From a virus, in IMG/VR virus record IMGVR_UViG_3300045988_161046, positions 37,807 to 101,806 of that record: a DNA stretch of 64,000 nucleotides. The stretch is one strand, 5' to 3'. The notes below the pieces were generated by a model. The model worked only from the letters and a program-made list of their open reading frames with translations, did not search any database and was not told the origin of the DNA. Positions 435 to 61,741 of this stretch are shown piece by piece; the stretch's first letter is position 1; each line of letters begins with the position of its first letter. The position numbers and the translations under genes are program-made.

Positions 435-1124
435 ATGAAGTACTTTTATAATTACAGCTTCCTCGACAAGTGGATGGAAGCAAATAGGAAAATCACCAAT
501 AGAGAAATTATGAAGGCTATGGGTACCACGAGCAATGCGTGCCTGGATAGCTGGATAAGAATGAAGTCTCCACTGCCTACCATCTCCCTGCTGCGCTTCT
601 GCAATGCGTTTCATGTGCCGCTGTCGGCTTTTATTGTAGATGCGGATAAAGACCAACAAGGCAGTGAAGGATGCTGCGGTGCGGGGTATGTATGCCCTGG
701 TATAGATGACCAGTTTGAGCCGGATGGGGGATATATAGATAATGATGAGAAGCGCAAACAGGGGACGAGGGCGCTGCGCAATCCCCTCGATGTGGAGAGG
801 ATGGAGTCGGTGGTACCTGGGTGGACCAGCGTTGGAAACGCTGGGAACGGAGGCGCAAAGGGACACAAGACAAGAGAAGAGGATAAGGAGGCTGCTGCTG
901 CACCTATGAATGCTGCTGCGCCTACCCCGATGGCAGAAAAAGCTGCAAACGCAGAACCGGACATCAGCCTAAAGACCCTTAACCGCATGCTCGATATTAT
1001 TGCTGAACAGCAGAAACAGATAGGCGATCAGCAAAAGCTCATCAGCGAACTCACCCACCGTCTGGAATCTCAGCAGCCTAGCTACAACATGGTAGCAGAA
1101 GAGATACATCGTAACGAGGAATAA
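435..1124 (+). CDS. putative HTH DNA-binding protein with C-terminal coiled coil
   Basis: N-terminus (ITNREIMKAMGTTSNACLDSWIRMKSPLPTISLLRFCNAFHVPLSAFI) resembles XRE-type HTH; C-terminus is heptad-like; low-complexity middle contains Class-A repeat copy 823-855. Confidence 0.45.
   Translation: MKYFYNYSFLDKWMEANRKITNREIMKAMGTTSNACLDSWIRMKSPLPTISLLRFCNAFHVPLSAFIVDADKDQQGSEGCCGAGYVCPGIDDQFEPDGGYIDNDEKRKQGTRALRNPLDVERMESVVPGWTSVGNAGNGGAKGHKTREEDKEAAAAPMNAAAPTPMAEKAANAEPDISLKTLNRMLDIIAEQQKQIGDQQKLISELTHRLESQQPSYNMVAEEIHRNEE
823..855 (+). repeat. Class-A hairpin element copy 1 (inside CDS 435-1124, stem variant gcgtt/aacgc)
   Basis: ggaccagcgttggaaacgctgggaacggaggcg. Confidence 0.85.
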
Positions 1125-1131
1125 ATGAAAA

Positions 1132-1162
1132 CAGCCAGCTATCCATCACGGACGGCTGGCTG
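1132..1162 (-). terminator. conserved-loop hairpin terminator T1
   Basis: Stem cagccagc/gctggctg; minus-sense loop CGTCCGTGATGGATA followed by T-rich run; lies downstream of the 1252-1809 operon. Confidence 0.5.
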
Positions 1163-1251
1163 CAAATGTTTCAGCTTTAACTACTTTAAACCAATAACGT
1201 TTATAAAAATATAGAAATAAATATATATAAAATATAAAGAACGAAATATGA

Positions 1252-1809
1252 TTAATGCTCGTTTACTGCTGCCATCTTACGGCGAAGGAACTCCCTCTCC
1301 GTGATTGTCTGGCAGTCCTCGCTTATGCTCTCGTAAGGCACATCGGTATAGAAAAATCCATGATGCAGGAAGAGGATAGGCGTTGTATTGCCAAAGGAGA
1401 ACGGAAGCTGCACCTCCTTGCCTTCCTTGCCCTTTGCCATCTTAGGTTTGAACTGCAAGATAGCGATAAGAGCAGTTTCATTTACGATAGGCAGTGCCAT
1501 CATCTCCTTCTCCAGGTCACTATTTTCATTAGGAACAAAGAGCGAAGTGCTCTGCATTCCGTCCTTGGTAGGAGTCTGAATGTTCGTCCAGCCTTCCTTG
1601 CTGATCGTGTTTTTGAACTCTACCATCGCCACACCACCTGCAAAGCCTTCGGGCGATTCGTAGTAGGTATCGGCTCCCTGCTTCTCTGCCCAGGCTCTCG
1701 CCTTCTCGCTTGCTTCACTACACTCAGCAAAAAAAGCCTTCAGCTTCTTGCCTGTCTCACTCTCCTCTGCTATCTTCAGATAGTTGTGAGGTCTGTTTTC
1801 TTTTTCCAT
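1252..1809 (-). CDS. hypothetical protein
   Basis: ORF track 1252..1866; start moved to MEKENRPH (1809) because the first 19 codons are the (GGTAAAAA)n array and overlap the upstream gene's stop. Confidence 0.55.
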   Translation of the reverse strand: MEKENRPHNYLKIAEESETGKKLKAFFAECSEASEKARAWAEKQGADTYYESPEGFAGGVAMVEFKNTISKEGWTNIQTPTKDGMQSTSLFVPNENSDLEKEMMALPIVNETALIAILQFKPKMAKGKEGKEVQLPFSFGNTTPILFLHHGFFYTDVPYESISEDCQTITEREFLRRKMAAVNEH

Positions 1810-1816
1810 AAATCCG

Positions 1817-1853
1817 TTTTTTACTTTTTTACCTTTTTGCTTTTTTACCTTTA
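1817..1853 (-). repeat. Class-B (GGTAAAAA)n array B1, leader of 1252-1809
   Basis: ttttttacttttttacctttttgcttttttaccttt. Confidence 0.8.
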
Positions 1854-2168
1854 AACTGCCCTGCAATAGATGACCGGCTCGCCGCTCTCATCATTCTGCA
1901 TACGGAAGCCCTGATAGCTTAACTCCTGCAGATAAAGAGAAAGCGGGTCGCCCAGCGGACAGACTATCGCCTTGAAATATTCACGAAGTCGGGCATCATT
2001 GAATACCTCGCAGCCATCTACCCAATGATCCAACGGCTTATACTGATTACTGAAGGCTTCTATCTTTGCCGGGATAACGAAATCCTGCAGCGTAACTTCT
2101 GCCTGTTCATCATTATCCACGATGTCGTAACCGTACTGCACGTGTTTCTTACTTTTTCCATTCCCCAT
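1851..2168 (-). CDS. hypothetical protein
   Basis: ORF track; packed in a same-strand operon. Confidence 0.55.
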   Translation of the reverse strand: MGNGKSKKHVQYGYDIVDNDEQAEVTLQDFVIPAKIEAFSNQYKPLDHWVDGCEVFNDARLREYFKAIVCPLGDPLSLYLQELSYQGFRMQNDESGEPVIYCRAV

Positions 2169-2769: not shown

Positions 2770-2799
2770 ACGTTTTCATTTCTTTTAATGTTTCTGACG

Positions 2800-4991: not shown

Positions 4992-5864
4992 CTACTTCGG
5001 CATACTTGCCAATATCTCCTTCGTAAAGTTCTCATAGTCTTGCCCTACTCTACTGTAAGGCGAATAAGAAAATATATCCTGATTGATAGCCTGCGCTTCC
5101 ACCATCTTCGTATCACGACGAGTATACGAGTCGAACATGTAGTCATCAAACTTATTGCCCAGATACTCCTTAAACTGCTTTGTGGCTCTCGTCTGATCAT
5201 TACTCATTACCATAAACAGACCACGAATATCAATATCAGGGTTCAAGTCTTCTCGCGTTTCCTGTACCGCATTCAGAATTTCGGCAATACCTTTTGTTGC
5301 CAACATTTCAAGCTGGATAGGTATCACTACACCCGATGCAACCGATAGGGCATTATGCGTGAGAAGTGACAAAGCTGGTGGGCAGTCAATCAATACATAG
5401 TCGAAAGCCTCCAGGATAGAAGATACTCCCTCATTTATCAGTTCATCACCCCGAACTTCGGTCAAAGGCTTGCCGAATAACTTAAACAAAGCCTTGCGTG
5501 GTACCGGCATCTGATTGAGGAATGGTTCGATATTGATAAGGCGATAAGATGCTGGAGCAAGATAGATACCTTCCCTTACCTGGTAAACAGGCAAGCGGGA
5601 TTGCTGTATCATCGCATCGTACATGGTAGGCTGCCCCATATTCTCTGCCTCACTCCATCCAAAGAGGAAGGAAAGGCTCGACTGCGGATCGAGGTCGATG
5701 AGCAAGATACGAGGCTTGCGCTCCTTGCCGTTTTCACCCTTGCCAAAGTAACCCTTGCCATAACGACGAAGACCAGTTGCTAAACTCTGTACGGTTGTTG
5801 TCTTACCAACTCCTCCCTTGTGATTTACGAAGGCGAGGATTTCTTTTAATCTTGTTTCTGCCAT
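4992..5864 (-). CDS. parA: ParA/Soj-family partition ATPase
   Basis: Deviant Walker A NHKGGVGKTTT; Walker B-like VLIDCPP. Confidence 0.85.
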   Translation of the reverse strand: MAETRLKEILAFVNHKGGVGKTTTVQSLATGLRRYGKGYFGKGENGKERKPRILLIDLDPQSSLSFLFGWSEAENMGQPTMYDAMIQQSRLPVYQVREGIYLAPASYRLINIEPFLNQMPVPRKALFKLFGKPLTEVRGDELINEGVSSILEAFDYVLIDCPPALSLLTHNALSVASGVVIPIQLEMLATKGIAEILNAVQETREDLNPDIDIRGLFMVMSNDQTRATKQFKEYLGNKFDDYMFDSYTRRDTKMVEAQAINQDIFSYSPYSRVGQDYENFTKEILASMPK

Positions 5865-6389: not shown

Positions 6390-6536
6390 GTGTTGAATGT
6401 TGAGTGTTAAATGTTGAATTTGGCTAGCGCCCTTGAGCCTGGTGGGGGACCAGCGATAGAATCGCTGGGGACGGGGGCGATAGGAAGAAACGCAACCCCG
6501 ATAGACTAATTCAACATTCAACACTCAACATTGAAA
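6390..6536. repeat. Class-C palindrome C1: (GTTGART)n arms 6390-6420 / 6509-6536 enclosing Class-A copy
   Basis: gtgttgaatgttgagtgttaaatgttgaatt ... aattcaacattcaacactcaacattgaa. Confidence 0.85.
6447..6479 (+). repeat. Class-A hairpin element copy 2
   Basis: ggaccagcgatagaatcgctggggacgggggcg. Confidence 0.9.
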
Positions 6537-7529
6537 TCAAAACTCCACCACGCTCTGTTCTTCCTCCCACGCATCATTGAGTGATACCGAAATGGTGGAA
6601 TGGTGATTATAGTAAGAGCCGCTTACTACCGTAACATGGTTGCGCTGCAAACTGATGTTCGATAGCTTAAACGAGGTGTAAGGCTCGGTGCTGCCCTTGC
6701 GGTTCATGGTGAAGGTGATGTCCGTAGTATAGCCATCCTTCGGCACCAGGAAATAGTAGAAGAGGGAAGAGGAGGTTTTGCCGGCATATCTCGTAACGTC
6801 AGCGATACGCAGGTTTGATACCTTGCCGGTGGCGGCAAAGGTCTGCCAGTCCCATTGTTTATATTCATCGAGCTGTAACTGCAGGGTACTGCAATCTTCC
6901 GGATATGTTCCGGTGTTCTTTACCGTCAGTTTCGCTACGATACGTTCCAGTTGGATATTGATACTCTGGTTCTGACCGACGCTTATACTCACGTCCTGCA
7001 CTGCGCCGAAGCTGTCAGAGTTCTTCGTGCTCGTAAGCACAGCAGGAAGGACACCATCGGCAGACACCGAAAAGGCAGTATTATCTGCCAGACTCCATAA
7101 CGAGCCATCAGCAGAGAGTAGGGTAGGGGTTTCGCTTCTCGTAGCTATCACCTTCAGCGTATGATTGCCGTAATCGAGACTCAGGGATGGCTCTGCAAAA
7201 TCCTCGGCATCGGCAGTCTGGTGCAACACCTGGAGCAGTTTGCCGCTTGCCTTGTCGTAATCGAAGATGTAGAGGTCGGTCATCGCCTTGCCGTTGGCAG
7301 CAAGCTCGGCACGCGTGATAGGGTAGGCGATCCGTCGGCACTGGCTCACGCTCACGTCACCGCCTTCTGGCGAAGTAAACCGCAGTCTTACCATAGTCTT
7401 GCCCGTCATAGGCCGGCTGCCTCCGTTCTCTACTGCATCTTCCACATACTCGGTGCATGAGGTATTCATCATCATGCACGCTGCCATCATCGCAAAGGTG
7501 GTGGCAAACAAAAACTTCTTAGTTCTCAT
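6537..7529 (-). CDS. lipoprotein, possibly fimbrillin (Mfa/FimA)-like
   Basis: Signal plus lipobox MRTKKFLFATTFAMMAACMMMNTSC; overall beta-rich; the fimbrillin call is a weak impression only. Confidence 0.55.
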   Translation of the reverse strand: MRTKKFLFATTFAMMAACMMMNTSCTEYVEDAVENGGSRPMTGKTMVRLRFTSPEGGDVSVSQCRRIAYPITRAELAANGKAMTDLYIFDYDKASGKLLQVLHQTADAEDFAEPSLSLDYGNHTLKVIATRSETPTLLSADGSLWSLADNTAFSVSADGVLPAVLTSTKNSDSFGAVQDVSISVGQNQSINIQLERIVAKLTVKNTGTYPEDCSTLQLQLDEYKQWDWQTFAATGKVSNLRIADVTRYAGKTSSSLFYYFLVPKDGYTTDITFTMNRKGSTEPYTSFKLSNISLQRNHVTVVSGSYYNHHSTISVSLNDAWEEEQSVVEF

Positions 7530-23168: not shown

Positions 23169-23328
23169 AGGTAAAAAAGTAAAAAGGTAAAAAGGTAAAA
23201 AGAGCCTAGCGGGAGATAGGGACTCCTGCTAGGCTCTTTTCTTTTAGGACCAGCGATAGAATCGCTGGGGACGGAGGCAAGGGGGTAAGGTTCTTTTTAC
23301 CTTTTTACTTTTTTACCTTTTTACCTTT
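23167..23328. repeat. composite B-hairpin-A-B structure between convergent genes
   Basis: B arm 23167-23202, hairpin gagcctagc...gctaggctc 23202-23236, Class-A copy 23247-23278, inverted B arm 23293-23328. Confidence 0.85.
23247..23278 (+). repeat. Class-A hairpin element copy 3
   Basis: ggaccagcgatagaatcgctggggacggaggc. Confidence 0.9.
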
Positions 23329-34576: not shown

Positions 34577-34609
34577 TTTTATTGTTTGGATTTTTATTTA
34601 TTTATAAGG

Positions 34610-34646
34610 CAAAGATAAAGGGTTTCGATTTTTTAGTTGGGACAAA
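34610..34646 (-). promoter_or_regulatory. Class-II promoter (TTTGTCCC, 25-nt gap, TATCTTTG)
   Basis: Upstream of ATG 34576; Class-A copy abuts it. Confidence 0.55.
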
Positions 34647-34649
34647 AAA

Positions 34650-34680
34650 CCCAGCGATGGAATCGCTGGGAACGGAGGCG
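34650..34680 (+). repeat. Class-A hairpin element copy 4
   Basis: cccagcgatggaatcgctgggaacggaggcg. Confidence 0.9.
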
Positions 34681-36120: not shown

Positions 36121-36122
36121 AA

Positions 36123-40191: not shown

Positions 40192-40227
40192 TTTTTTACC
40201 TTTTTACCTTTTTACTTTTTTACCTTT
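40192..40227 (-). repeat. Class-B array B6, leader of 37380-40184
   Basis: ttttttacctttttacctttttacttttttaccttt. Confidence 0.8.
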
Positions 40228-40917: not shown

Positions 40918-40954
40918 CAAAGATAGGGGGTTTTTTCTTATTAGGGGGGACATA
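40918..40954 (-). promoter_or_regulatory. Class-II promoter (TATGTCCCC, 25-nt gap, TATCTTTG)
   Basis: Upstream of ATG 40892. Confidence 0.5.
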
Positions 40955-40963
40955 AAAAAAGAA

Positions 40964-40994
40964 CCCAGCGATTGAATCGCTGGGAACGGGGGCG
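40964..40994 (+). repeat. Class-A hairpin element copy 5
   Basis: cccagcgattgaatcgctgggaacgggggcg. Confidence 0.9.
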
Positions 40995-43416: not shown

Positions 43417-43453
43417 TTTTTTTACCTTTTTACTTTTTTACTTTTTTACCTTT
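43417..43453 (-). repeat. Class-B array B7, between portal stop and next ATG
   Basis: tttttttacctttttacttttttacttttttaccttt. Confidence 0.8.
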
Positions 43454-45269
43454 AAGAGACCTCTTGTTTCGCCACTCCGGTCTTCGAGTTATCGAGGGTA
43501 GTCAATACCTCCCGGTCAACCTGCCATACCAGGTGCTCGTCCCAATCGTTGAAGCGGCTCAAGACTTCCAGCGGGCGTATCATCAACTGCTGCAATGGGG
43601 CAAACTGAATCTGCTTGACCAGGAAACGCTCTCTCAGGTCGGTACCGCCAGAGGACGCTGTATCACCAGGGGTGTTGCCGATGAGCTTTGCATCGAGACC
43701 CATGGCAAAGAAGATGATGCTGCTTATTTCCTGTAACTCGGTCTTGTCGGCATTCGCCTGATCATTTGCCTTGGTTTCGATTTCCACGATTTCCCAAGCC
43801 TTGTGCTCCTTTCCGTCGCTTCCCGTAAAGGCAGAAGAGATGAGTGCCTGACCTGCATTATCAGGGTTGGCGAGCCATGTATTGATGGAAGTGAAGATTT
43901 CATTCTGAATCTCACCCTGGGTTTTCTTTTTCTTCTCACCCTGCTGCTGATAGAGCCTGCTGATATAGTCCTGGTGGATATAGATGACACGACCGATGAT
44001 GTTGCTGTTGCGCTTTCGGGTGAGGCGGTCATCTACGATGGTGAAGGCATATTCAAAGATGCTGCCGGCAAAGATGGAGTGCCAAAGGGCATCGGCATAA
44101 TACGGACCACCGAAATCACGTGGCGACATGATGAAGCGGGTAGGGCGTTTCTTGCGGCTTACCTGCTTCTGACGTGCCTCACGTATCTTGCGCTGCAAAT
44201 CCTTTACGGCTGATGTGGTAGGGAGATAAGGGATAGCCGCTATCTTGCGGTCTTCCTCCTTCTGCACACCGACGTATTGGGTTGGGTCGAGCCACTGGTT
44301 GCTGACGTAGGCATAGTTGATGCGGTAGTTCTCGTCCATTCGTTCCAGTCGGGTGGTGAAAATACTGCGATGCTTCAGACCGATTACCTTCGGGGTCCAT
44401 TGAGCGGTAGGAACAGCCTTGCCGTTTTCGTCGAGGGAACGCTGATTAAGCTGAAGTTCTACAAAGCATTGTGACATCAGAGCCATATCTCCTGCCAGGT
44501 CGAGGAAGGTCTGCATCAGGTCGTTATTCTCTATGAAATCACGAAGCTGGGTATTGGTTTCTTCCCATTTGTGGAGGGCTTCTTTCAGAGATTTCATCTC
44601 CTCGCTTTCCTCTTCATCGGAGGATAAGACCTGCGATGAAATCGCAGGGAACGGAGTCTCCTCTTGCTGAGACTGCCCGTTCTGGCTCTGCTGCTCGCTC
44701 TGGCGCTTGGCTTCGGCGGCTGCCTCTTCCTTGGCTTTGAGGTCGGCTATCTGACCACGGAGCAGAACTCCTGCACTCTCGTAGGGGATATATTTCTCTG
44801 TGATGTTTCCGCCTACATACTGGGTATAGTGATACTTTGGGGCGGGACCGCGACCTACCAGTATCTTCTTGATGTAATCAACTCCTGCTGCCGTAAAGGG
44901 CGACATACGGGAGAGCATCCAGATAAGGTTTGGCAGTCGGTTGGACATACCCCATTCCATAAAGCCTAAGCCTTCGGTACCTACGTCTTTCGGTTTACCC
45001 ATGTTCTCGCCGCCACTTGATGCAAAGATTGTGGAGACTTGCTGACGTGCTGCAGAACCGCTTGCGTCGCCACCGCTTGCCGACATACCGGCTGTGGTCA
45101 GGAGCATGCTGTGAACGTAGTCGTTCCAGGAGAAGACTTTACCGCCACCATTCTTAAGCGGCGTAAAGGCATCCGGGCGAACGGCTACATAGCCTGCATC
45201 TTTCAGTTCCTCACTACGCTGTTGGAGCTGCTGCAGGTTGGTTACTCTGTTTCTGTTTTTGCTTGCCAT
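43452..45269 (-). CDS. portal protein
   Basis: 605 aa; C-terminal region ...IIFFAMGLDAKLIGNTPGDTASSGGTDLRERFLVKQIQFAPLQQLMIRPLEVL resembles the conserved portal core. Confidence 0.55.
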   Translation of the reverse strand: MASKNRNRVTNLQQLQQRSEELKDAGYVAVRPDAFTPLKNGGGKVFSWNDYVHSMLLTTAGMSASGGDASGSAARQQVSTIFASSGGENMGKPKDVGTEGLGFMEWGMSNRLPNLIWMLSRMSPFTAAGVDYIKKILVGRGPAPKYHYTQYVGGNITEKYIPYESAGVLLRGQIADLKAKEEAAAEAKRQSEQQSQNGQSQQEETPFPAISSQVLSSDEEESEEMKSLKEALHKWEETNTQLRDFIENNDLMQTFLDLAGDMALMSQCFVELQLNQRSLDENGKAVPTAQWTPKVIGLKHRSIFTTRLERMDENYRINYAYVSNQWLDPTQYVGVQKEEDRKIAAIPYLPTTSAVKDLQRKIREARQKQVSRKKRPTRFIMSPRDFGGPYYADALWHSIFAGSIFEYAFTIVDDRLTRKRNSNIIGRVIYIHQDYISRLYQQQGEKKKKTQGEIQNEIFTSINTWLANPDNAGQALISSAFTGSDGKEHKAWEIVEIETKANDQANADKTELQEISSIIFFAMGLDAKLIGNTPGDTASSGGTDLRERFLVKQIQFAPLQQLMIRPLEVLSRFNDWDEHLVWQVDREVLTTLDNSKTGVAKQEVS

Positions 45270-45414: not shown

Positions 45415-45446
45415 GGACCAGCGATAGAATCGCTGGGAACGGAGGC
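45415..45446 (+). repeat. Class-A hairpin element copy 6
   Basis: ggaccagcgatagaatcgctgggaacggaggc. Confidence 0.9.
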
Positions 45447-45474
45447 TCCTCTTCTTATTCATAATTAATAATGA

Positions 45475-48132: not shown

Positions 48133-49239
48133 TCATTTGTTCCTCCTCATCTTTTCCATTTCCTCATTCTCTTTCGACAACCTTTCGAGATGTTCGAGAA
48201 CGAGGGAATAAGACTGAGTATTGACCTGATCTTCCGTTAGGCCGACATACTTCTGCATCGTAGCGGTGGTGACGGTGTAGATCTCCATCGGGGTTTGCGG
48301 CTTGGTGTTGTTTGCCTTCTGTACCTTGAACACGTGAGGGTAGCGATGAGCTAGGGTGTGCATGATGCCCGTCCACCAGAAGAGGATGACCTGCCAGTTT
48401 GCCTCTGGGAAATTGACGAAATACTTTGCGTTCTCGGTGAACTGCTTTGACTCGTAATGAAAATCGTATTTCGTGATGCCTGTTGTCGGATCGACGTACT
48501 GGGTGGTGGTGTTGAAGATGGTGGCAAGGAACATGTTTCTGGCGCTAGCTACGCTCTGAGCTTGCGTCTGAAGTTGCTCCTCGATGAACTTATCCATCTG
48601 CTTCATCTTTACCAGGTTATTGCTTAACTTGGTGTAGGTCTGCATCATATCGCTAGCAAAACGGTATTGCTGCCAGGAAAAGCCATCGAGGTCTGTACTC
48701 GGACCGCGGAAGGCTTTGGCACGACGATACCACTTGGCTTTCTGTCCGATGAGCGGATAGGGGAAGAGGGTGAGGAAATTGCCGCTGTCTGCATCCAGCC
48801 AGTCGAGAAGACCTGCGCCCTGAGCGATATACTCAGGGGAGGTTTTATCCTTGGTCTTGGCTTTCGGAGAGAGCCAATAGTTGAGCTGCCAAAGATAGAG
48901 GGGAAAGTGGCTGCCGGACTGCGGACCAGCGATAGAATCGCTGGGAACGGGGGCGCAGAGGGAGAGGAGCTTCTTCAGAAGGCTCTTCTTCTGCGGCTCT
49001 ATGCTTACCAGGTAGTGCTGCTCATTGATAGGCATGCGAGGGTCGGGATAGGCATTGATGCCTATTCCGGCAAAAAGGAAGAAAACGGCTATCTTCACCT
49101 TCTGCATATCGAAGGGGTGATAGCGGTCTGCCTTGGCTATCTGCTCCAGCATGATGAGGGCAATCTGCTCCAGCTGGGTAGGGGTGCATTGGTTCCAGCC
49201 GCGGGGGATGGTGAGGTTTATCTGTTCTTGCATAATCAT
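48133..49239 (-). CDS. hypothetical protein carrying an in-frame Class-A element
   Basis: ORF track; residues ...CAPVPSDSIAGPQ... are encoded by repeat 48923-48955. Confidence 0.55.
   Translation of the reverse strand: MIMQEQINLTIPRGWNQCTPTQLEQIALIMLEQIAKADRYHPFDMQKVKIAVFFLFAGIGINAYPDPRMPINEQHYLVSIEPQKKSLLKKLLSLCAPVPSDSIAGPQSGSHFPLYLWQLNYWLSPKAKTKDKTSPEYIAQGAGLLDWLDADSGNFLTLFPYPLIGQKAKWYRRAKAFRGPSTDLDGFSWQQYRFASDMMQTYTKLSNNLVKMKQMDKFIEEQLQTQAQSVASARNMFLATIFNTTTQYVDPTTGITKYDFHYESKQFTENAKYFVNFPEANWQVILFWWTGIMHTLAHRYPHVFKVQKANNTKPQTPMEIYTVTTATMQKYVGLTEDQVNTQSYSLVLEHLERLSKENEEMEKMRRNK
48923..48955 (+). repeat. Class-A hairpin element copy 7 (inside CDS)
   Basis: ggaccagcgatagaatcgctgggaacgggggcg. 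Confidence 0.9.
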
Positions 49240-52150: not shown

Positions 52151-52182
52151 GGACCAGTGATGGAATCGCTGGGGACGGGGGC
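52151..52182 (+). repeat. Class-A hairpin element copy 8
   Basis: ggaccagtgatggaatcgctggggacgggggc, starting 10 nt after the capsid gene stop. Confidence 0.85.
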
Positions 52183-52191
52183 AGGAGAGGG

Positions 52192-53484
52192 CTAACCCTG
52201 CTTCTTGAAGAAGGCGGTGAAGCCCTGGCTCATGCCCGTTGCAGCGAACTGGATCTTCTTCACCTTGCTGCCGGTGCTCCAGTGGTCGAAGATGTAGCTG
52301 GTACCATCTACTGCCTCAAGAGTAACAATAGCGTTAGGAGTTGTCTCCACTGGCTTAGTGTAATCAGCATCGTTCACCTTCACATGACCATCAATCTCTC
52401 CCTCTGCGCTAGCTACGGTCTTGGCAAGAGTAACGGTAATGTTAGACTCGGTGTAGTCGCCTGAAACGAACTCTGCGCTTTCGAGGGCACCGTCTGTCAT
52501 TGCGAAGGCCCAAGAGAATGGATTCTCTACATAACAGCCCTGAATACTTTGTGCCTGAATAGTGATGTCTCTCAGGTCGTCTGGACTGCCTTCACCAATC
52601 ATAACCCTAGTGTCGTTACCCTCAGAATCTACTGCGTAAACAAGGTTGTTTTCGATAGAGAAGAGGATGCGATCACCGACACCCAAGCCCTCAACTGGAA
52701 CGATGGTACACTTAGGAAGCTCTGGGATAACGTAATTACCGCCATCTACCACATTGAGCTTATGAGTGCCGTATGACTGGAGTGCGTAAGCATCAGAGAT
52801 AGCGATGGCTGTCTCAGGAGTCATGTAAGCGAGAACCTTCTGACGACGCATGCGTGGGTCCAGTTTCATGTAAACATCACGGAAGATCTTGTATGCAGAG
52901 CTGTCTGTTGCATCAGCTGGTGCAGAGATAGCTTCGCAGTGAATGAGGTTGTGGTTAGCCTCGCTGATAAGACCGTCCTCAATATCGTGCTTAATACCGG
53001 TAAGGAAGCCATCATAGAGAGCCATAGACTTCTCCAGATTTGAAGCGCCAGGAACGTCTCTATCAATGTCACCCCACCAGAGGTTGTTGTAAAGGTCGTC
53101 GGCGTAAGTCTTCAATACCGCTTCGATAGCTACGGTAGAAAGAGGATAAGCGCCATGTGAGTCTGTACCAAGGTTTGTCTCACAATAGCGGTCTATGTTA
53201 TCGGTACCGTGGAACCAAGCGAGCTTGGCTGTCAACTTACGTTCCTTGAGGAAACCGATTTCACTGTTCAACTTAGGATTTACATCCTTACGGCGAGTAG
53301 TACCACCCTTACGGATAAATACATTAATAGTGCGCTGATACTGGATGCCGCTGATAGTCTTGATGCCAAGACGCTTCATCTCCTCAGGGTTAGCGTAAGA
53401 TGGACCCTGAACAACGCTCTTGAATACCTGGTTAGCGACCTCTCTAAGGGCGCTGATACCAATAAAGTTGTTTGGTATTGCCAT
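52192..53484 (-). CDS. major capsid protein candidate
   Basis: 430 aa ORF immediately downstream of the protease-scaffold gene; call from synteny and size only. Confidence 0.5.
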   Translation of the reverse strand: MAIPNNFIGISALREVANQVFKSVVQGPSYANPEEMKRLGIKTISGIQYQRTINVFIRKGGTTRRKDVNPKLNSEIGFLKERKLTAKLAWFHGTDNIDRYCETNLGTDSHGAYPLSTVAIEAVLKTYADDLYNNLWWGDIDRDVPGASNLEKSMALYDGFLTGIKHDIEDGLISEANHNLIHCEAISAPADATDSSAYKIFRDVYMKLDPRMRRQKVLAYMTPETAIAISDAYALQSYGTHKLNVVDGGNYVIPELPKCTIVPVEGLGVGDRILFSIENNLVYAVDSEGNDTRVMIGEGSPDDLRDITIQAQSIQGCYVENPFSWAFAMTDGALESAEFVSGDYTESNITVTLAKTVASAEGEIDGHVKVNDADYTKPVETTPNAIVTLEAVDGTSYIFDHWSTGSKVKKIQFAATGMSQGFTAFFKKQG

Positions 53485-53535: not shown

Positions 53536-55134
53536 CTAGAGGAGACCATTTTCTCTCTTGTACTCCTCGATAGCTTTCTTTGAACCTACTGGGTCGGCTG
53601 GATTCCAGGTTGGGTAGCCTGTCTTTGCGGTTTCTACCTTTGCGCCCTCACCGTTGTTCTGAGGTGCGGCACCCTGCGCTGGCTCCTCACCTGGGTTCTC
53701 GTTCAGCTCGGCAATCTGAGCGTCCTTGTCGGCGATGGTCTGCTGGGCAGTCGCGAGTGAAGCCTGGGCAGTCTTCAACTCCTCATCTGCCTTTGCCTTC
53801 TCCTCATCGGCCTTAGCCTTTGCCTCTTTCAGGTTCTTGATTTCCTCGTCCTTCTGGGCGATGGTTTCAGCGAGTGCGTCGTGCTTTGCCTGAAGGTCAG
53901 CAAGATTCTGCTCTGCTGTGGTGGCTTTCTGCTTGGCATCAGCCACAGCCTGCTCCTGCGATGCGAGATGAGCTTCGAGGGTATCGAGCAACGGGGCATT
54001 CATGAATGCGCCTTCCTCCTTTACCTCAATCTGCTGACCATCCTGCATACCGCAAGCGGCATTGATCTTTGAATAATTTGCCATATTGATTGATTTTTGT
54101 GAAATAGTATGTTGATGATTTTCTTGTACAATAGATGCAGATGCCTGCTCCGGCTCGTTCTCTTCCGGTTCAGGCTTTTGGATAGAAGCCTCTCGATTGA
54201 TAGGCTCGGCTGTGCCGTTGTAGAGAGCGAAGCAACGCTGAACGCACCCCATAAAGGTAGACTGGTCGTCCATAAGGATTCCCTTTACGTCTTCAGCATT
54301 GAATACCTTACCTTTCAGGTGAACATCCTCGATAGCGTTAGGACAGGCTTTCTTCACATCGGCTCTGAACTCCACGCCCAACTCGGAAAGCTCTTTGATA
54401 AGCTCCTTGTTGTCATTCTTGTTGGCGATGTCACGGTAAGCCTTATTCTTGTCGAAAGACTCTGGATCGTACTCCTCGTGATAAGTCTCATCGGTATATT
54501 TATCCTTTGAGCCATTAGCCAAAGTATAGAAGGCAGCCATCACGCCGATGCAACCAACCTGGTCTTTCGGATTCAAGTAATATCGCTCATCGCAAAGAGA
54601 AGCGAGATACATACCTGCACTGGCACACATTCCATCTACCAGGGCGATGACCTTCTGACCCTTGGAGTGGGCATAGTCGATAGCAAGTGCATAATCGTTT
54701 TTAGCCCAAGCCGAACCGCCAGGAGTATTAATGATAAAAAGATGACCTCGGCAAAGCGGATGGTCAGCTGCACGCATCATCATATCGCGATGGTCGATAG
54801 AACCATAAGAGCAATATCCACCATTTCGAGTGATAGGACCATCTACGGTGAGAACCGAAACAAACGGGAAGTTCTGTGCCCGCTCATCCTCCTCCGGATA
54901 GTCGAGCTGATAGTTAGCTCTCACCTGCTTGCCATCCTCGGAAATCTGATATTCCTCCGGATAGTAGGTGTTGCCTTCAGCATCCTCCGCAGTGACGAAT
55001 CCACAAGTCCTTTCCGGTTTGGTAAACTCTGTGTGAGTATTTAGGTTCTGCTCAATCGATTTACGAATGCCATGCACGAAATCGGGGTTCACCATCCACT
55101 TCTTCTCGGTCAGAATTTCATAAAGACCTTTCAT
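53536..55134 (-). CDS. S49 (SppA/ClpP-like) prohead protease fused to a coiled-coil scaffold region
   Basis: LFIINTPGGSAWAKND...VDGMCASAGMYLASL; C-terminal Ala/Lys/Glu-rich coiled coil. Confidence 0.7.
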   Translation of the reverse strand: MKGLYEILTEKKWMVNPDFVHGIRKSIEQNLNTHTEFTKPERTCGFVTAEDAEGNTYYPEEYQISEDGKQVRANYQLDYPEEDERAQNFPFVSVLTVDGPITRNGGYCSYGSIDHRDMMMRAADHPLCRGHLFIINTPGGSAWAKNDYALAIDYAHSKGQKVIALVDGMCASAGMYLASLCDERYYLNPKDQVGCIGVMAAFYTLANGSKDKYTDETYHEEYDPESFDKNKAYRDIANKNDNKELIKELSELGVEFRADVKKACPNAIEDVHLKGKVFNAEDVKGILMDDQSTFMGCVQRCFALYNGTAEPINREASIQKPEPEENEPEQASASIVQENHQHTISQKSINMANYSKINAACGMQDGQQIEVKEEGAFMNAPLLDTLEAHLASQEQAVADAKQKATTAEQNLADLQAKHDALAETIAQKDEEIKNLKEAKAKADEEKAKADEELKTAQASLATAQQTIADKDAQIAELNENPGEEPAQGAAPQNNGEGAKVETAKTGYPTWNPADPVGSKKAIEEYKRENGLL

Positions 55135-55978: not shown

Positions 55979-56767
55979 TCATAGCCACTGCACTTCGTCG
56001 ATGCGGTTAGGCTTGTCACGACTATCTTTATATTGCATATCCACACAGGAATAGCTCTTGAAGAAGCAATGCTCCGTGCGGAACCATCTGCCGATGATTC
56101 GGCGCAATACGTCTTTCTCTTCCTCGCTGACTTCTATACCGTAGCGCATTAAATAACGCTCCAGCATGGCGTTATGGGAACGGGCGATAACCCTTCCTTT
56201 GGAGGTACAGAAGTCGAAGGTGGAGAGTGCCCATTCTACCAGACTGCGCTTGAAATCATTGTTCAATGAGACCGCCAGGGCCCGCATGCCGTTCGTATCG
56301 AGTGTAAAGGTAGGCTTTACCGGATAAACAGTATCGACAACTTCTACCTCGCTCGGCAAGCGGATGCAGAGATAATCATCGTGTGAACCCTTGCCATCGG
56401 TAAGGCGGCCATTGAGCTGCTGAACTTCCTGGAAGGTGAGCCAGCTTCCGACATCACGGCGCATCATTACCTTGCCTCCGGCAGGATGCCTACCCGTGAG
56501 CATATTGCACCATTGCTGCTGCGAGAAACAGCCGAGGTCAATACGGTTGCTTTTCGCAGGGGCGCTAATAAGCGAATTGCGCATGATGAACTGCTCGTGT
56601 GAGTAGTTGCTGAACACCACCGGCTCATCCTTTGCCAGGGTGAACTTAGGGTCGCGGTGCCGGAAAAACTGGCAGCGGGATGTGGGGAGACGGAGATAGA
56701 TATTTGGCACCTTTTCTAATTTATAATTTATAGTTGATAGGGCAGGCTTGCTAAAAGAACCTAGCAA
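55979..56767 (-). CDS. hypothetical protein
   Basis: ORF track; start uncertain because the first codons overlap Class-A copy 9. Confidence 0.55.
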   Translation of the reverse strand: MLGSFSKPALSTINYKLEKVPNIYLRLPTSRCQFFRHRDPKFTLAKDEPVVFSNYSHEQFIMRNSLISAPAKSNRIDLGCFSQQQWCNMLTGRHPAGGKVMMRRDVGSWLTFQEVQQLNGRLTDGKGSHDDYLCIRLPSEVEVVDTVYPVKPTFTLDTNGMRALAVSLNNDFKRSLVEWALSTFDFCTSKGRVIARSHNAMLERYLMRYGIEVSEEEKDVLRRIIGRWFRTEHCFFKSYSCVDMQYKDSRDKPNRIDEVQWL

Positions 56768-56789
56768 TGGAATTGCTGGGAACGGGGGC
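56760..56789 (+). repeat. Class-A hairpin element copy 9 (stem variant gcaat/attgc)
   Basis: cctagcaatggaattgctgggaacgggggc. Confidence 0.8.
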
Positions 56790-56834
56790 TAGATAGCGCT
56801 AGCCTTCTATCAACTATTAATTGTTAACTGTTAA

Positions 56835-57809
56835 CTATTTCATTGCGATGCCTTTCTCCATGGCGTAATGGAGCATGATGGCATCGGTGATGTAGAGAAA
56901 ATATTTCTGCATGCTGTTGCCTTCCTTCGGGCGTGGTACCAGCTTATCAAGCTTGGCAGTCTGGTCCTCGCTGAGATTAGCGATGAGTTTCATGCCGTCG
57001 ATATAGCAGCCGCCGGATTCCGTCTTGGCGATGAAACTTTCGTTGAACTTCTTGTCTTCTCCGAAGAAGAGGTTGATGGCTTCCACCATCTGATCCTGTG
57101 TGAAACCGGGAAGGGTAGGATGCAGCTTGCGGTACTTCTGCGAATAGGTCTTCATACGCTTATCCATATAGATATTGATGCTGTCGGCATACTCATAGTA
57201 GAGGGCGTAATCTTTCGATTTCTCGTCTTTCTTACGGGCAAAATCGAAGAAACCGCTCAACTGACGGAGGCTTGCCATCACGCCGTCAAACTGCTGAAAC
57301 TCACTGGCACCTTTGAAGATTTCCAGCATATCGCCCTTCACCTGGGTAAGCAGGTTTTCGAGCATTTCAGAGAGGAACGTTATCTTATCGAGATTGGTAT
57401 TCAGCTGGTCTACCTTCGCCTGTATGCCCGGACGGCTGTAGTCTACGTAGTAACGTATCAGATGGCCGAAGTTAAGGAAGTCGTAAGTTACCTCACTATG
57501 CAGATTTACCTGTACTAGCAGGTCATAGATGGAATTTGCCAGTTTGCTATCCTTATCCTGGATAGCCTTAATGAGTGATAACATCTGAGGCGAACCCTGC
57601 GGTATGCGGTTGGCAGCACGTACCAGTTCGTTTCGGTTGCGCACGGCATCGGCAAACTTCGGATCTGCGAAGAGCGTCTCCAGGGTTTTAACGTATACAT
57701 CAGCAGGCACATCCTTGAAGTTGAAGGTGTAGATGGTAGGGAGGTTTCTTATTTGCGCCTCACGCTTGGCCATCGCCTGCTGCTGGTGTTTCTTGTTTTT
57801 TGTTCCCAT
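56835..57809 (-). CDS. hypothetical protein
   Basis: ORF track. Confidence 0.6.
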   Translation of the reverse strand: MGTKNKKHQQQAMAKREAQIRNLPTIYTFNFKDVPADVYVKTLETLFADPKFADAVRNRNELVRAANRIPQGSPQMLSLIKAIQDKDSKLANSIYDLLVQVNLHSEVTYDFLNFGHLIRYYVDYSRPGIQAKVDQLNTNLDKITFLSEMLENLLTQVKGDMLEIFKGASEFQQFDGVMASLRQLSGFFDFARKKDEKSKDYALYYEYADSINIYMDKRMKTYSQKYRKLHPTLPGFTQDQMVEAINLFFGEDKKFNESFIAKTESGGCYIDGMKLIANLSEDQTAKLDKLVPRPKEGNSMQKYFLYITDAIMLHYAMEKGIAMK

Positions 57810-57832: not shown

Positions 57833-57864
57833 GGACCAGCGATAGAATCGCTGGGAACGGAAGC
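57833..57864 (+). repeat. Class-A hairpin element copy 10
   Basis: ggaccagcgatagaatcgctgggaacggaagc, 24 nt upstream of ATG 57809. Confidence 0.9.
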
Positions 57865-57911
57865 TCTATTTATCATAATGAGCGTTAGAGATATTGAGGA
57901 GAGGGGAGCGG

Positions 57912-58301
57912 TTATCGCTCATCGCCTTCACCGGCTATCACATGACGCTCCTTGCGGGAGGCAAGCTTTGCCAGGTTCTCCTCGGCTACTTCTTCGAGGC
58001 TTACACCCATCACATGGGCGAGTCCTGCGGTCTGCCAGAGAATATCTCCGATTTCGGAAAGCATCAGCTTGCGCTCTTCCTCGGTTACATTCCAGATTTG
58101 GGTGTGGCAGATTTTGCCATCCTCGTCACGCTCGGTGGTGGTGATATGAAGCTTGCCTTTGCGCATGTGCTTGCCAGCCTTGCTTGCAAATTCTCCTACT
58201 TCGCCACAAAGGTTGGCGAGCATATAGAAGAGGTTATCACTCTCTGAAAGGCAGGTTGTCATTGCCTTCTCCTGATATTCGTTTAATGTCATTTTTGCCA
58301 T
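57912..58301 (-). CDS. mazG: MazG-like nucleotide pyrophosphohydrolase
   Basis: LCGEVGEFASK and EIGDILWQTAGLAHVMG match the MazG EExxE / ExxD helices. Confidence 0.7.
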   Translation of the reverse strand: MAKMTLNEYQEKAMTTCLSESDNLFYMLANLCGEVGEFASKAGKHMRKGKLHITTTERDEDGKICHTQIWNVTEEERKLMLSEIGDILWQTAGLAHVMGVSLEEVAEENLAKLASRKERHVIAGEGDER

Positions 58302-58313: not shown

Positions 58314-59210
58314 TTAGATTTCAAAATCTTTATCATATTCCATCATTCTCTCGGTAATGATGCGATGAATCAGATAGCCTATTTCCTTGGCGTTAGGATG
58401 CGCCTTGCCGGTACTTTCATGGAAGCGGAGGTCCAGGATATGTTTCCACTCCTTGAGGGTATAGGTATAGGCTACCACCGTATAGGTATCGAGAGGAAGA
58501 ATGCCGCGGGCATCCTGCGGCTTCATGCCCGATTTCAGCAAACGGCGATAGAGCCAGTCGGCTATCTTGCATCCAGCAAGATATAGGAACTTCTGCCATC
58601 GGGTGCCCTCATGCAGCCAATGCGGACGAGCAATCTGCACACCACCTTTCTTCTCCAGGTTCACATAGCGTGTGCTCTGCTCGCTGATACAGTTAGGCGA
58701 TGTGCGGTTCAGCTCACGGCTGGTGCTGATCTGCGTGGTAACAACCATGGTCATGCGGAGGAGATAGAGCGCCTTTTTGCAATCATACTTCAGCGCCTTC
58801 TCGATAAACTCATCTTCCTTCACCTGGTAGGGCGTGAGGAGGTTGAGAGTATCGGGATGCTCGGCCAGAAACTGCATGTTGCTGCTGATCCATACCTTTT
58901 TTTCCTGCACTGCATAGTTGATGTAGGGTGAAGCTACGAGGAGCGACCAAAGTGACCTCGGCAGTCTGTTATCATTCTTGACGAAGAAATAGATGGTGCC
59001 GTGACGGAGCATAGAGCGATGACCGCTCTCCCAGAAACGGTTAACCATCTTTACTGCCTGTTCTTCCCGAAACTCCTCTTTCTTACCTTCAGGAAGATTC
59101 TCGTCAGGCTGTTTTGCCTTACTCTTGTAGCAGATTCTGCCTACTCGGGCAATCTGTTGGGCGGCGGTCTTCTGAGGCCACCACTCAACACCAGGAATTA
59201 TCATTTTCAT
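58314..59210 (-). CDS. ThyX-like (flavin-dependent thymidylate synthase fold) protein with an atypical signature
   Basis: ESGHRSMLRHGTIYFFV and SEQSTRY fit ThyX; where canonical ThyX has RHR, my manual alignment gives LNRTSPNC. Confidence 0.55.
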   Translation of the reverse strand: MKMIIPGVEWWPQKTAAQQIARVGRICYKSKAKQPDENLPEGKKEEFREEQAVKMVNRFWESGHRSMLRHGTIYFFVKNDNRLPRSLWSLLVASPYINYAVQEKKVWISSNMQFLAEHPDTLNLLTPYQVKEDEFIEKALKYDCKKALYLLRMTMVVTTQISTSRELNRTSPNCISEQSTRYVNLEKKGGVQIARPHWLHEGTRWQKFLYLAGCKIADWLYRRLLKSGMKPQDARGILPLDTYTVVAYTYTLKEWKHILDLRFHESTGKAHPNAKEIGYLIHRIITERMMEYDKDFEI

Positions 59211-60010: not shown

Positions 60011-60292
60011 TCATCCTCTCAAAACCTTATTTCCTGTAGGTAAAAACGTGAGGTTTCTCAGTCGTTCCAGCGAAGGATATTGCTGATTTACTCTGTCTCT
60101 GAAATCGTCCATATCGCCCATGTATACCATATATTTTCCCAATGCCATATCAAAGTTCACCGGGAACGTCATCGTGATTTGACGGAGGAATTTACCCCCC
60201 CCAATCATTACATCGAATACAACTTTCTCCCATCGCTGACCTTTCTTGTCGAGCCATGACCCCTTCGGGATTTCTACTTTTCTCTTTGCCAT
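60011..60292 (-). CDS. hypothetical protein containing a G8 tract
   Basis: ORF track; C8 at 60195-60202 encodes IGGGK. Confidence 0.5.
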   Translation of the reverse strand: MAKRKVEIPKGSWLDKKGQRWEKVVFDVMIGGGKFLRQITMTFPVNFDMALGKYMVYMGDMDDFRDRVNQQYPSLERLRNLTFLPTGNKVLRG

Positions 60293-60330
60293 AATCTTAT
60301 ATCTTTAATGTATTAAAAAGCTTTTTGTCA

Positions 60331-60419
60331 ATGTTGAGTGTTGAGTGTTGAATGTTGAATTAGGCTAGCGCCCTTGAGTCCGTCAGACAATTCAACATTC
60401 AACATTTAACATTAAACAT
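60331..60419. repeat. Class-C palindrome C4
   Basis: Arms 60331-60361 / 60389-60419; loop ggctagcgcccttgagtccgtcagac. Confidence 0.85.
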
Positions 60420-61488
60420 TCCGCTCGCGGTAAACCTGCTGCAGAATAGAGTGATATTCTCCTTCGCCCAAATTCACCTTGGCGGCGTGGATAAGGTAAT
60501 TGTAACTCACAGTGGTACTTCTGCCTAACTGCCGCCACTTCTGTGAAGCCTGGGCAGCGTTGTACTTCCGGCTGCAGGCTGAAAGCTCGTGAAACAGACG
60601 TTCGCCATAAGGGTGCGCCTTCAATGACCAACCTGCCTTCGTCCACTCATCGTAGCTTTCCGTAATGTTGATGTTTCGGCTCACTAGGGCTTTTACGATG
60701 AGTTCGATGATGCGGTCTTGCGTGCGAGGATCATTCCAGAAGGCTGAGTTATCGCTGCCGCCGTAAGCGCTGGAGGCGTTACTCTGCGGTTGCCGGTACA
60801 TCGGTCGTGCCTGCGGTATCACCTGCGGTTCGTCCATCTGCAAGCCTTGGTAAGGCTGCACATGAGTATTAATATATATATGGTCGGCATCATCCCATGA
60901 AGCGAAACGCACACGTCCGATATTGCCGCATTGCTTATCGAGCACGATGCCCAAGGCTGCATATTCCTTGAGGATAGCCTTGAACTGCTCCTTATGCCTG
61001 TCGGGATAAGCCAGCCGAACCAGTCCGAAATATCCGGTACCCGAACAGGAACGCATCAGCAAGCCTATCTCTGGACGGAAACGAGCCACCATGCGGATAT
61101 TCTCAAAGCTGGTAAGCTGCTGGTTGTCCTGAAGGTCGATGTCGATAGCGAGCCATCCGGTATGCTGCCAAAGATGGGTTTCTCTTCTTGATACCATCAC
61201 GCGCTGACCGGGATGGGTAAGGCTATCGTCTTCGTAGAGACGGAAGAGACCGCTCAATGTGGCACCGGGAAGCATCTTCTTTGTTTCGATATATTCCGGC
61301 ATCTTCTTCGCCTTGCTGCCATACTGTTGCCTCATGGCTCTCAGCTTCTCAACATACGGCTTCCATCTGTCCGTCAGACAAAACTCACGGATAGACATCT
61401 GCGTGATGCACTCGCCAGTCTCCATATCGATAAAGTCACCGTGGGCATCCGTAGCAGACTTGTAGATGGAGCATATCTCTTCAAACAT
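60412..61488 (-). CDS. primase-like protein (VirE/BT4734 N-terminal-type domain plus PriCT-2-like C-terminus)
   Basis: ...RSCSGTGYFGLVRL...GNIGRVRFASWDDADHIYIN... and ...YDEWTKAGWSLKAHPYGERLFHELSACSRKYNAAQASQKW. Confidence 0.5.
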   Translation of the reverse strand: MFEEICSIYKSATDAHGDFIDMETGECITQMSIREFCLTDRWKPYVEKLRAMRQQYGSKAKKMPEYIETKKMLPGATLSGLFRLYEDDSLTHPGQRVMVSRRETHLWQHTGWLAIDIDLQDNQQLTSFENIRMVARFRPEIGLLMRSCSGTGYFGLVRLAYPDRHKEQFKAILKEYAALGIVLDKQCGNIGRVRFASWDDADHIYINTHVQPYQGLQMDEPQVIPQARPMYRQPQSNASSAYGGSDNSAFWNDPRTQDRIIELIVKALVSRNINITESYDEWTKAGWSLKAHPYGERLFHELSACSRKYNAAQASQKWRQLGRSTTVSYNYLIHAAKVNLGEGEYHSILQQVYRERNV

Positions 61489-61521
61489 ACCTTACATATA
61501 TTATTTATTCATTTTTCGCTG

Positions 61522-61529
61522 CAAAGATA
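61522..61529 (-). promoter_or_regulatory. -7 box TATCTTTG upstream of the primase-like gene
   Basis: Exact TAnnTTTG about 35 nt upstream of ATG 61488; no clear -33. Confidence 0.4.
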
Positions 61530-61605
61530 CAAAAATAAATCGAAAATAGTATAGGTAAGCTATATAATATTTGAAATAAGTTATATTTTTAACATTTAAT
61601 ATATA

Positions 61606-61741
61606 AAAAGTAAAAAAGTAAAAGGGTAAAAAAAGCATTAGCCACCTTCTGCCTTTTCTTCTCGGACCAGCGATGGAATCACTGGGAACGGAGGCGAGAA
61701 TGGAGCCACGCAACCCCCGCCAGGCTCTTTTTACCTTTTTT
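61606..61741. repeat. composite B-A-B structure
   Basis: B arm 61606-61636, Class-A copy 61664-61695, short inverted B arm 61728-61741. Confidence 0.75.
61664..61695 (+). repeat. Class-A hairpin element copy 11
   Basis: ggaccagcgatggaatcactgggaacggaggcg. Confidence 0.85.

Follow-up and report, generated by a model that had tools for sequence, protein, structure and literature searches.

The window analysed here is a 64-kb stretch (positions 37,807 to 101,806) of the virus record IMGVR_UViG_3300045988_161046, and it belongs to an uncultured gut tailed phage. Its protein set includes an S49-type prohead protease, tail proteins, a reverse transcriptase and a C5 cytosine methyltransferase, together with a GH108 endolysin, a MazG-like protein, a ParA-like ATPase and a primase-like protein. 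Almost all long open reading frames (ORFs) sit on the minus strand, which is taken as the gene sense throughout. Between these genes, and in some cases inside them, lies a short hairpin element in twelve copies, which is the subject of this work. The same element is dispersed over chromosomes of the Segatella (Prevotella) copri complex, and we consider it probable that it is a repeat similar to the repetitive extragenic palindromes (REPs) of bacteria, common to S. copri and its phages.

Copies and architecture of the element in the window

An earlier note on this DNA had listed eleven copies of a hairpin in a single orientation. All eleven were found where they had been placed, on one strand, with none expected by chance. 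A scan of the window with the 22-mer GGACCAGCGATAGAATCGCTGG, allowing at most 3 mismatches, gave 8 copies, all on the plus strand, and no match in 100 shuffles; at the remaining coordinates (34650, 40964 and 56760), inspection by eye and a fuzzy search revealed the same hairpin with CCC replacing GGACC. Using a 32-nt consensus (substitutions only, at most 7 mismatches), we detected 12 copies in the window and none in 20 shuffles, the additional copy being a diverged one at 44627-44658 (CCTGCGAT ttc ATCGCAGG). Read in gene sense, the unit is GCCYCCGTYC-CCAGCGAT-TCY-ATCGCTGG-TCC. This core of about 33 nt opens with a C-rich, unpaired 5' tag whose last bases are CGT(T/C)C; it continues with an 8-bp stem (CCAGCGAT/ATCGCTGG) enclosing a 3-nt loop (TCC or TCT), and closes with a TCC tail. 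The flank that the earlier note had called a conserved 3' flank is indeed conserved, but in gene sense it is a 5' tag.

Compensatory changes have preserved the pairing of the stem. Each copy that we folded gave the hairpin, often nested in a larger local palindrome, and the region of copy 2 folds at -61.7 kcal/mol (z = -7.4). Among 150 distinct sequences, 98.8% of stem cells were paired, compared with 15-47% in slid controls; changes on both sides were seen in 4 of the 8 stem pairs, and 17 double-change cells were observed against 0.7 in shuffles (0/500). Seven kinds of compensatory variants emerged from an unbiased search for substitutions over 340 unique contexts: CGAG/CTCG, CAAG/CTTG, CCGG/CCGG, CCTG/CAGG, GCAAT/ATTGC, GCGTT/AACGC and GCGAA/TTCGC. 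The two paired changes noticed before, GCGTT/AACGC in the copy at 823 and GCAAT/ATTGC in the copy at 56760, the latter with a T.G on the plus strand, are both there. Selection on a folded DNA or RNA had been proposed from them; the compensatory change itself holds, although template switching could mimic it, as discussed below.

We then considered the position of the copies relative to genes (Table 1). Seven window copies lie 19-68 nt past minus-strand stop codons (6537, 23336, 34708, 41003, 52192, 56835 and 57912). The reported distance of about 10 nt between copy 8 and a capsid stop codon is correct, while the identity of ORF 52192-53484(-), which follows the prohead protease gene, as the major capsid gene is putative. 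The copy described as lying 24 nt before an ATG is copy 10, found 23-26 nt before the ATG at 57809.

In the copies at 34650, 40964 and 56760 the TCC tail is swapped for a G and a T-run, which gives a 9-bp-stem intrinsic terminator form, and two T-run copies are the top terminator-like matches on the gene strand within 33-53 kb. A T-run 3' of the hairpin on the minus strand is thus present in only 3 of the 12 window copies, in agreement with the earlier view that the copies are not simply terminators; TCC stands in place of the U-run in the other 9 and in more than 90% of all copies.

A conserved promoter-like motif of the Bacteroidota -33/-7 type (TTTGTCCCC...(C)CCnTATCTTTGCC; the phage form being TTTG ... 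CYYnTATCTTTG) has four sites on the minus strand, three of which lie 28-39 nt past an element. The promoter adjacency claimed for the copies at 34650, 40964 and 45415 is clear at the first two and weaker at the third, and the copy at 48923 has such a site too. Because a promoter-like site follows copy 7, the gene in ORF 48133-49239(-) probably begins downstream of that copy.

Some copies fall within coding sequence. The diverged copy at 44627 is in frame in a 605-aa ORF (43452-45269), within ..QQEETPFPAISSQVLSSDEEE.., and contributes the peptide ..TPFPAISSQV.. to an acidic linker. For the copy at 823, the coding strand of ORF 435-1124 was assigned by three-periodic substitutions, and the linker that holds the copy shows 9- and 18-nt indels among relatives. 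A phage protein of 352-404 aa, encoded by relatives and not by the window, also contains an in-frame copy of the element (..APVPSDSIAG..), located in a Glu/Lys/Ala-rich linker of variable length between two conserved domains; it was found at the loci L015, L024, L025, L017, L083, L095, L001 and L042.

Table 1. Copies of the hairpin element, promoter-like sites and other features of the window
Feature	Position	Strand	Description
Copy 1	823..855	-	stem variant CCAGCGTT/AACGCTGG; inside plus-strand ORF 435-1124, thus antisense; indel-prone Gly/Ala-rich linker
Copy 2	6447..6479	-	68 nt past stop of ORF 6537-7529(-); in loop of long palindrome ~6395-6532, arms of GTTGAATGTTGA type
Copy 3, long form	23247..23279	-	preceded by (GGTAAAAA)n array; 67 nt past stop of ORF 23336-23812(-); convergent genes around
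Palindromic terminator	~23197-23241		separate; comes after copy 3
Copy 4, terminator form	34648..34680	-	9-bp stem CCCAGCGAT/ATCGCTGGG, then TTTTTTG; 38 nt past stop of ORF 34708-35769(-)
Promoter-like site	34608..34647	-	TTTG ... TATCTTTG; directly past copy 4, whose terminator T-run provides the -33 TTTG
Copy 5, terminator form	40962..40994	-	followed by GTTCTTTTTTT; 19 nt past stop of ORF 41003-42115(-)
Promoter-like site	40918..40961	-	CCCCCTATCTTTGCC; directly past copy 5
Copy 12, diverged	44627..44658	-	compensatory A-T to T-A (CCTGCGAT/ATCGCAGG); in frame inside 605-aa ORF 43452-45269(-)
Copy 6	45415..45447	-	148 nt upstream of ATG of ORF 43452-45269(-)
Promoter-like site, weaker	past copy 6	-	TTTG ... 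TAACTTTA
Copy 7	48923..48955	-	formally within long ORF 48133-49239(-)
Promoter-like site	~48888-48922	-	CCCCTCTATCTTTGG; 28 nt past copy 7
Promoter-like site	~49951	-	
Copy 8	52151..52183	-	one stem mismatch, C.A in gene sense; begins ~10 nt past stop of ORF 52192-53484(-)
Putative major capsid gene	52192-53484	-	adjoins prohead protease gene
Prohead protease, S49 type	53536-55134		
Copy 9	56758..56790	-	compensatory GCAAT/ATTGC, then GTTCTTTT; nested in TAGTTGATAG/CTATCAACTA palindrome
Copy 10	57833..57865	-	57 nt past stop of MazG-like ORF 57912-58301(-); 23-26 nt before ATG (57809) of ORF 56835-57809(-)
Copy 11, long form	61664..61696	-	preceded by GGTAAAAAGAGCC...GGGGTTGCGTG; 178 nt upstream of primase-like ORF 60412-61488(-)
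ParA-like ATPase (AAA_31/CbiA)	4992-5864		preceded by palindrome-rich 585-nt intergenic region
Reverse transcriptase ORF	26810-28258	-	
116-nt repeat pair	28467-28582 / 28780-28895		86% identical; second repeat within 3' end of tail-protein ORF 28738-30039(-)
C-5 cytosine DNA methyltransferase	46353-47654		Pfam E = 1e-50
8-nt arrays	2846-2916, 23170-23325, 35790-35884, 40192-40224, 43417-43450		among others

Distribution in phages and in Segatella copri

Viral contigs were scanned for exact matches to CCAGCGATNNNATCGCTGG, which gave at least 118 loci, most of them on 50-110 kb contigs with several copies each; the CCGTYC tag stands on one side in 154 of 178 viral copies among the matches listed. 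For bacteria, one genome per species was scanned with GTYCCCAGCGATNNNATCGCTGG, for which about 2 matches are expected by chance. At least 120 loci were found, almost all in S. copri complex chromosomes and metagenome-assembled genomes (MAGs). Among the matches listed they represent about 30-35 independent sites, conserved across many genomes, in about 25 S. copri-complex genomes. The complete HDD04 chromosome (3.86 Mb) holds at least 10 dispersed exact sites. Host copies lie between trpD and trpC, rhaB and rhaA, hemB and hemL, and a histidine kinase and a response regulator gene, and also upstream of a DAHP synthase/chorismate mutase gene; their consensus is (GGTAAAAA)n-GAGCCTTAACCCCTTTGCG-CCCCCGTTC-CCAGCGAT-TCC-ATCGCTGG-TCCCC. 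At orthologous host sites across many S. copri lineages the core is invariant amid variable flanks.

Searching for the element gave one unannotated match among deposited phages and none in plasmids. The window nucleotides and the putative capsid protein had no match in 50,697 deposited phage records (megablast, tblastn), and a sequence search of the putative capsid against the PDB was also negative; hundreds of relatives of this protein are found on metagenomic contigs of about 95-110 kb. Judging from the shared element, the likely host of this phage family is the S. copri complex.

The orientation of the copies is strongly biased. Among 104 classifiable host copies, 64 lie between tandem genes in the element's orientation, 27 between convergent genes in the orientation of the upstream gene, 11 between genes both opposite to the element and 2 between divergent genes; 5 host copies are inside ORFs. 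Copies in host chromosomes, if equally frequent, randomly oriented and without a link to transcript boundaries, had been named as the outcome that would undo the case for the element. Copies do occur there, but 91 of 104 (88%) point the same way as the upstream gene and follow its stop codon closely, at a median distance of 61 nt; the most frequent distance to the next ATG is 36-40 nt. Phage copies were tandem in 98 cases, convergent in 12 and divergent in 3, with none between two opposite genes, and all copies are on one strand in each of the 38 multi-copy phage loci.

Singletons dominate in the host, where 132 copies form 120 clusters among the matches listed. Inverted doublets were found at L120, L129, L171, L181, L188, L194, L195, L231 and L236, and the host locus L157 is a long perfect palindrome with the hairpin at its tip. 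The window contains 10 copies at up to 5 mismatches in 64 kb, that is 1 per 6.4 kb. For the host, we counted further clusters in 793 kb of blocks that had been chosen for holding one copy, and found 10 (1 per 79 kb), so that the element is at least about 12 times as dense in the phage as in the host. The host copy number is likely to be tens per genome. The loop is TCC in 110 of 130 host copies, whereas TCT and TCC loops are equally common in phage copies, many of which have GCCTCC or GCCACC tags. As loop and tag variants differ between phage and host copies, these data suggest that the element diversified within phages rather than being repeatedly captured from the host.

Copy presence and position differ among related phages, a point the earlier note had raised. 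A systematic comparison of flanks among the phage loci revealed clean gains or losses of 74-96 nt between phages with 95-99% identical flanks, including sites that are empty in the window. L085 carries an insert of 78 nt relative to the empty L057, with flanks 99% identical; in L058, compared with eight empty relatives, the insert is 96 nt and has a TTTTAA direct repeat at its bounds; in L059, compared with the empty window site at ~2903-2916, it is 86 nt and bounded by a 21-nt duplicate of TAAAGGTAAAAAGGTAAAAAG; and in L079, compared with the empty L039, it is 74 nt. L043 and L068 are filled where the window (36121-36130) and four relatives are empty, and L045 and L117 are filled where the window is empty at ~58315-58344. 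The module of copy 5 (40962..40994) is absent in the relatives L074, L002 and L041, and L116 and L037 have another palindrome instead; the module of copy 9 (56758..56790) is absent in L117 and L045. The same phage gene pair can be separated by nothing more than a stop codon, a few A and an ATG, by the element with a promoter, or by a different long palindrome with the same promoter. By parsimony, this indicates several independent gains of the element in phages. The inserts have no fixed ends, long forms starting at TTTTTAAAGGTAAAAG and short forms a few bases past the stop codon. In the host, a search for a site empty of the element alone yielded only larger variable segments containing it.

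A probable REP-like repeat and its alternatives

Taken together, these observations make it probable that the element is a REP-like palindromic repeat common to S. copri and its phages, transcribed as a 3'-end hairpin and spreading by copy-insertion. As in REPs generally, a short palindromic unit (20-40 nt) recurs at many dispersed chromosomal sites, and in host and phage it is mostly extragenic, between unidirectional or convergent genes and rarely between divergent ones. The G+C-rich hairpin with an immediate U-run of intrinsic terminators is found in 3 of the 12 window copies and is not a trait of the family, and inverted doublets are not the main unit as they are in REPINs, since singletons dominate. 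Considering its position, the element would be transcribed within the 3' untranslated region of the upstream gene or within intercistronic RNA. There the hairpin may act as transcript punctuation, either as a barrier to 3'-to-5' decay or as an attenuator, while copies with a U-run would act as full intrinsic terminators. By punctuating transcripts in this way, the element would separate transcription units in the phage, often directly in front of the next promoter. Host functions may spread it, with terminator-like palindromes and A-rich (GGTAAAAA)n tracts as the targets of copy-insertion or recombination. An RNA-processing role, one of the three roles suggested in the earlier note, is possible. 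A miniature mobile element is the closest of the three: clean gains and losses, in-frame intragenic copies and a dispersed host family fit a REP-like repeat.

In architecture, the element appears to resemble most closely the tagged REPs of the CGTC superfamily (Di Nocera et al. 2013, PMC3733652), which includes Neisseria dRS3 and Rickettsia RPE-4 and RPE-6 and has been reported in Bacteroidetes. In these, the tag CGTC (variants TGTC and CCTC) is terminal and unpaired, the stem has 8-9 bp, the loop 4-5 nt, and the tail, of 3 nt, has the consensus CCA (PMC3733652). The unpaired terminal tag, the stem length (8 bp in the element, 9 in its terminator forms), the short loop and the 3-nt unpaired tail are alike, and so are the placement between unidirectional or convergent ORFs near the upstream ORF's 3' end, the inverted dimers, the insertion into larger palindromes and the in-frame intragenic units in linkers. 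CGTC-type families also have no linked transposase, and tagged families with tens of copies exist. Formal membership is not established, however, because about three quarters of the copies have CGTTC as the tag and the rest CGTCC, within a longer conserved C-rich tag, the loop has 3 nt and not 4-5, the stem starts with C-C and not A/T, and the tail is TCC and not CCA. Further differences are that both dimer types are seen, and that the family is common to phages and denser there.

Other known repeats are less similar. With E. coli REP/BIME and Pseudomonas REPIN-RAYT systems the element shares short extragenic palindromes downstream of genes within operons, a proposed role in mRNA 3'-end protection or attenuation, inverted doublets forming long hairpins, and gain and loss between strains. 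Unlike them, it has no GTAG tag, no RAYT was found in a tblastn search that is a weak test, singletons dominate, host copies apparently number tens and not hundreds, and presence in virulent-looking phage genomes is strong. Rickettsia palindromic elements (RPEs) likewise insert in frame into proteins and add a short peptide in tolerant regions, for which ..APVPSDSIAG.., ..TPFPAISSQV.. and, for the antisense copy, ..WTSVGNAGNGG.. may be compared; RPE-1-type units are 100-150 bp long, whereas the core described here has about 33 nt and is mostly intergenic. The window copies at 34650, 40964 and 56760, with a G+C-rich 9-bp stem and a U-run, are like Rho-independent terminators, but many host copies sit within operons or are followed by a separate canonical terminator. 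A literature search gave no paper with the element sequence and none describing REPs in S. copri or common to its phages. It appears that this kind of element is well known, while the present family and its phage enrichment are undescribed.

Several observations weigh against this interpretation. Nine of the 12 window copies have no U-run, and the copy at 823 is antisense to its local gene, yet on the common strand. One-sided stem changes comprise about 14 sense-strand G.U and about 9 A.C, with no clear excess of the former, which does not favour an RNA over a DNA hairpin. Loops inverted from TCC to GGA, with unflipped flanks, were found at L131 (between trpD and trpC) and in L001 at 9018, while orthologous sites elsewhere have TCC. 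These flips suggest DNA-level template switching within the palindrome or cruciform processing, and template switching in a palindrome could yield 'compensatory' changes without selection. With at least 10 exact sites in 3.86 Mb, and about 1 per 79 kb in the neighbourhood of known copies, the host copy number seems low beside that of classical REP families, which typically exceeds 100 per genome. Finally, tblastn with two Y1/RAYT transposase queries, run against 1.9 Mb of loci, found nothing, although this is a weak test.

Some of these points would suit a purely selfish, functionless miniature hairpin, copied by a single-strand (HUH/Y1-type) or other enzyme of host or phage, with its biases reflecting tolerated sites or strand-specific insertion. 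Such an element would readily account for clean presence or absence of 74-96 nt between flanks 95-99% identical with several independent gains, for intragenic in-frame copies in both orientations, for the loop flips, for copies nested in pre-existing palindromes, and for the single strand used by every copy in every phage locus, even by copy 823 against its gene. We nevertheless regard this explanation as possible but unlikely: host copies are kept at orthologous sites in many S. copri lineages, with the core invariant and the flanks variable, 88% of them are oriented as the upstream gene, and some copies are clearly predicted to serve as terminators in front of promoters. The inserts, moreover, lack fixed ends or a consistent target duplication, and the weak tblastn test gave no transposase. 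The strand bias that holds regardless of gene orientation at 823 also fits a DNA-level site, be it for a host protein on double- or single-stranded DNA, such as gyrase or a nucleoid protein, or a one-strand signal for replication or packaging. Binding of gyrase or a nucleoid protein has been reported for E. coli REPs, the flanks of the element are conserved in sequence and not in structure, and the loop flips and long perfect palindromes (L157) suggest cruciform or hairpin DNA. Compensatory stem changes, however, speak against duplex recognition by a dimeric protein, and a host orientation that tracks the upstream gene and avoids divergent regions is unexpected for a topological or replication site, making this improbable.

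The suggestion that the element is bound by a phage regulator or antiterminator was not supported. A conserved linear tag with a hairpin, in a single orientation and intergenic, recalls a nut-like RNA site (boxA-like tag, boxB-like hairpin) or an N4-like hairpin promoter for a phage RNA polymerase. Host housekeeping operons cannot rely on a phage protein, yet they contain the same sequence, the copies track the 3' ends of upstream genes and not operon starts, and there is no RNA polymerase or antiterminator family among the scanned window proteins; we consider this idea very improbable. On the grounds of presence in the host trp, hem and rha operons and of tracking gene 3' ends, both a phage-polymerase promoter (T7-like or N4-like hairpin) and a nut-like antiterminator site were rejected. 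A solitary CRISPR-repeat mimic, that is an RNA anti-CRISPR of the Racr type, is hardly credible: size, a short stem-loop with conserved flanks and intergenic presence in phage give a resemblance only, whereas none of the listed 120 host blocks has more than 2 copies or regular spacing, host copies sit between housekeeping genes, and the phage has 12 copies in 64 kb, some of them inside genes. Other candidates were also set aside. ARAGORN (tRNA/tmRNA) and Rfam, the latter over the whole window at gathering thresholds, were negative, which speaks against a tRNA/tmRNA fragment or known RNA family, and Rfam around a host long-form copy gave noise only, all far below thresholds. The compensatory stem changes and the distribution in the host make a partition or centromere site for the ParA-like gene (4992-5864) unlikely, and a Chi-like protection site was rejected on account of the element's excessive length and great rarity in the host.

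Returning to the REP-like repeat, it could in addition be actively mobile and target hairpin loops, with the ~100-kb S. copri phages as its main reservoir, seeding host operons and carrying it between host lineages. In that case the mobilising enzyme might be of a new type, as no Y1 transposase was evident in the weak tblastn test. We regard this extended proposal as doubtful.

Neighbouring features and implications

A second repeat class common to host and phage consists of long inverted repeats of GTTGAATGTTGA-like units, seen at window 6395-6532, in L116, L037, L102 and L061, and in the host at L153, L163, L179, L183 and L200; they can enclose the hairpin element or take the same intergenic positions. 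Palindromic terminators of both phage and host have arms made of tandem 8-nt arrays, with (GGTAAAAA)n in one arm and (TTTTTACC)n in the opposite one; these lie at several window sites (Table 1) and also at host loci. On the gene strand the array has TAA in all three reading frames, and ..KGKKVKG*, a peptide encoded by the (GGTAAAAA)n/(TTTTTACC)n array, is the C-terminus of many host ORFs that precede the element.

Concerning other parts of the window, the region 26810-30039, with the reverse transcriptase ORF and the 116-nt repeat pair, is a diversity-generating retroelement (DGR). The pair is probably its template repeat and variable repeat (TR/VR), because the second copy sits in the 3' end of the tail-protein ORF. 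The ParA-like ATPase and the palindrome-rich region before its gene raise the possibility of a plasmid-like prophage stage. In the database entries, contigs labelled 'Lachnospiraceae bacterium' or 'bacterium' that carry sites identical to those of S. copri (L154, L160, L162, L194, L207 and L217 in CAVBFV01; L167 and L172 in CAVHWE01) suggest mis-binning in their MAGs, and the 'Prevotella sp.' MAG contigs L175, L199, L215, L220, L237 and L238 are pieces of this phage family.

In conclusion, the element offers a sequence-based host link to the S. copri complex for a large family of abundant ~60-110 kb gut phages, and represents an apparently undescribed REP-like family in an important gut bacterium. 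REP-type repeats are usually viewed as chromosomal furniture. A repeat that is common to phages, enriched there and found at transcript boundaries by promoters may serve as a practical marker of phage transcription-unit structure, and as a test case for the question of whether repeats of this kind serve usefully as RNA punctuation or are parasites of the genome that travel by phage. Should the phages indeed be a reservoir of a mobile repeat, they would be vectors of REP-type repeats.

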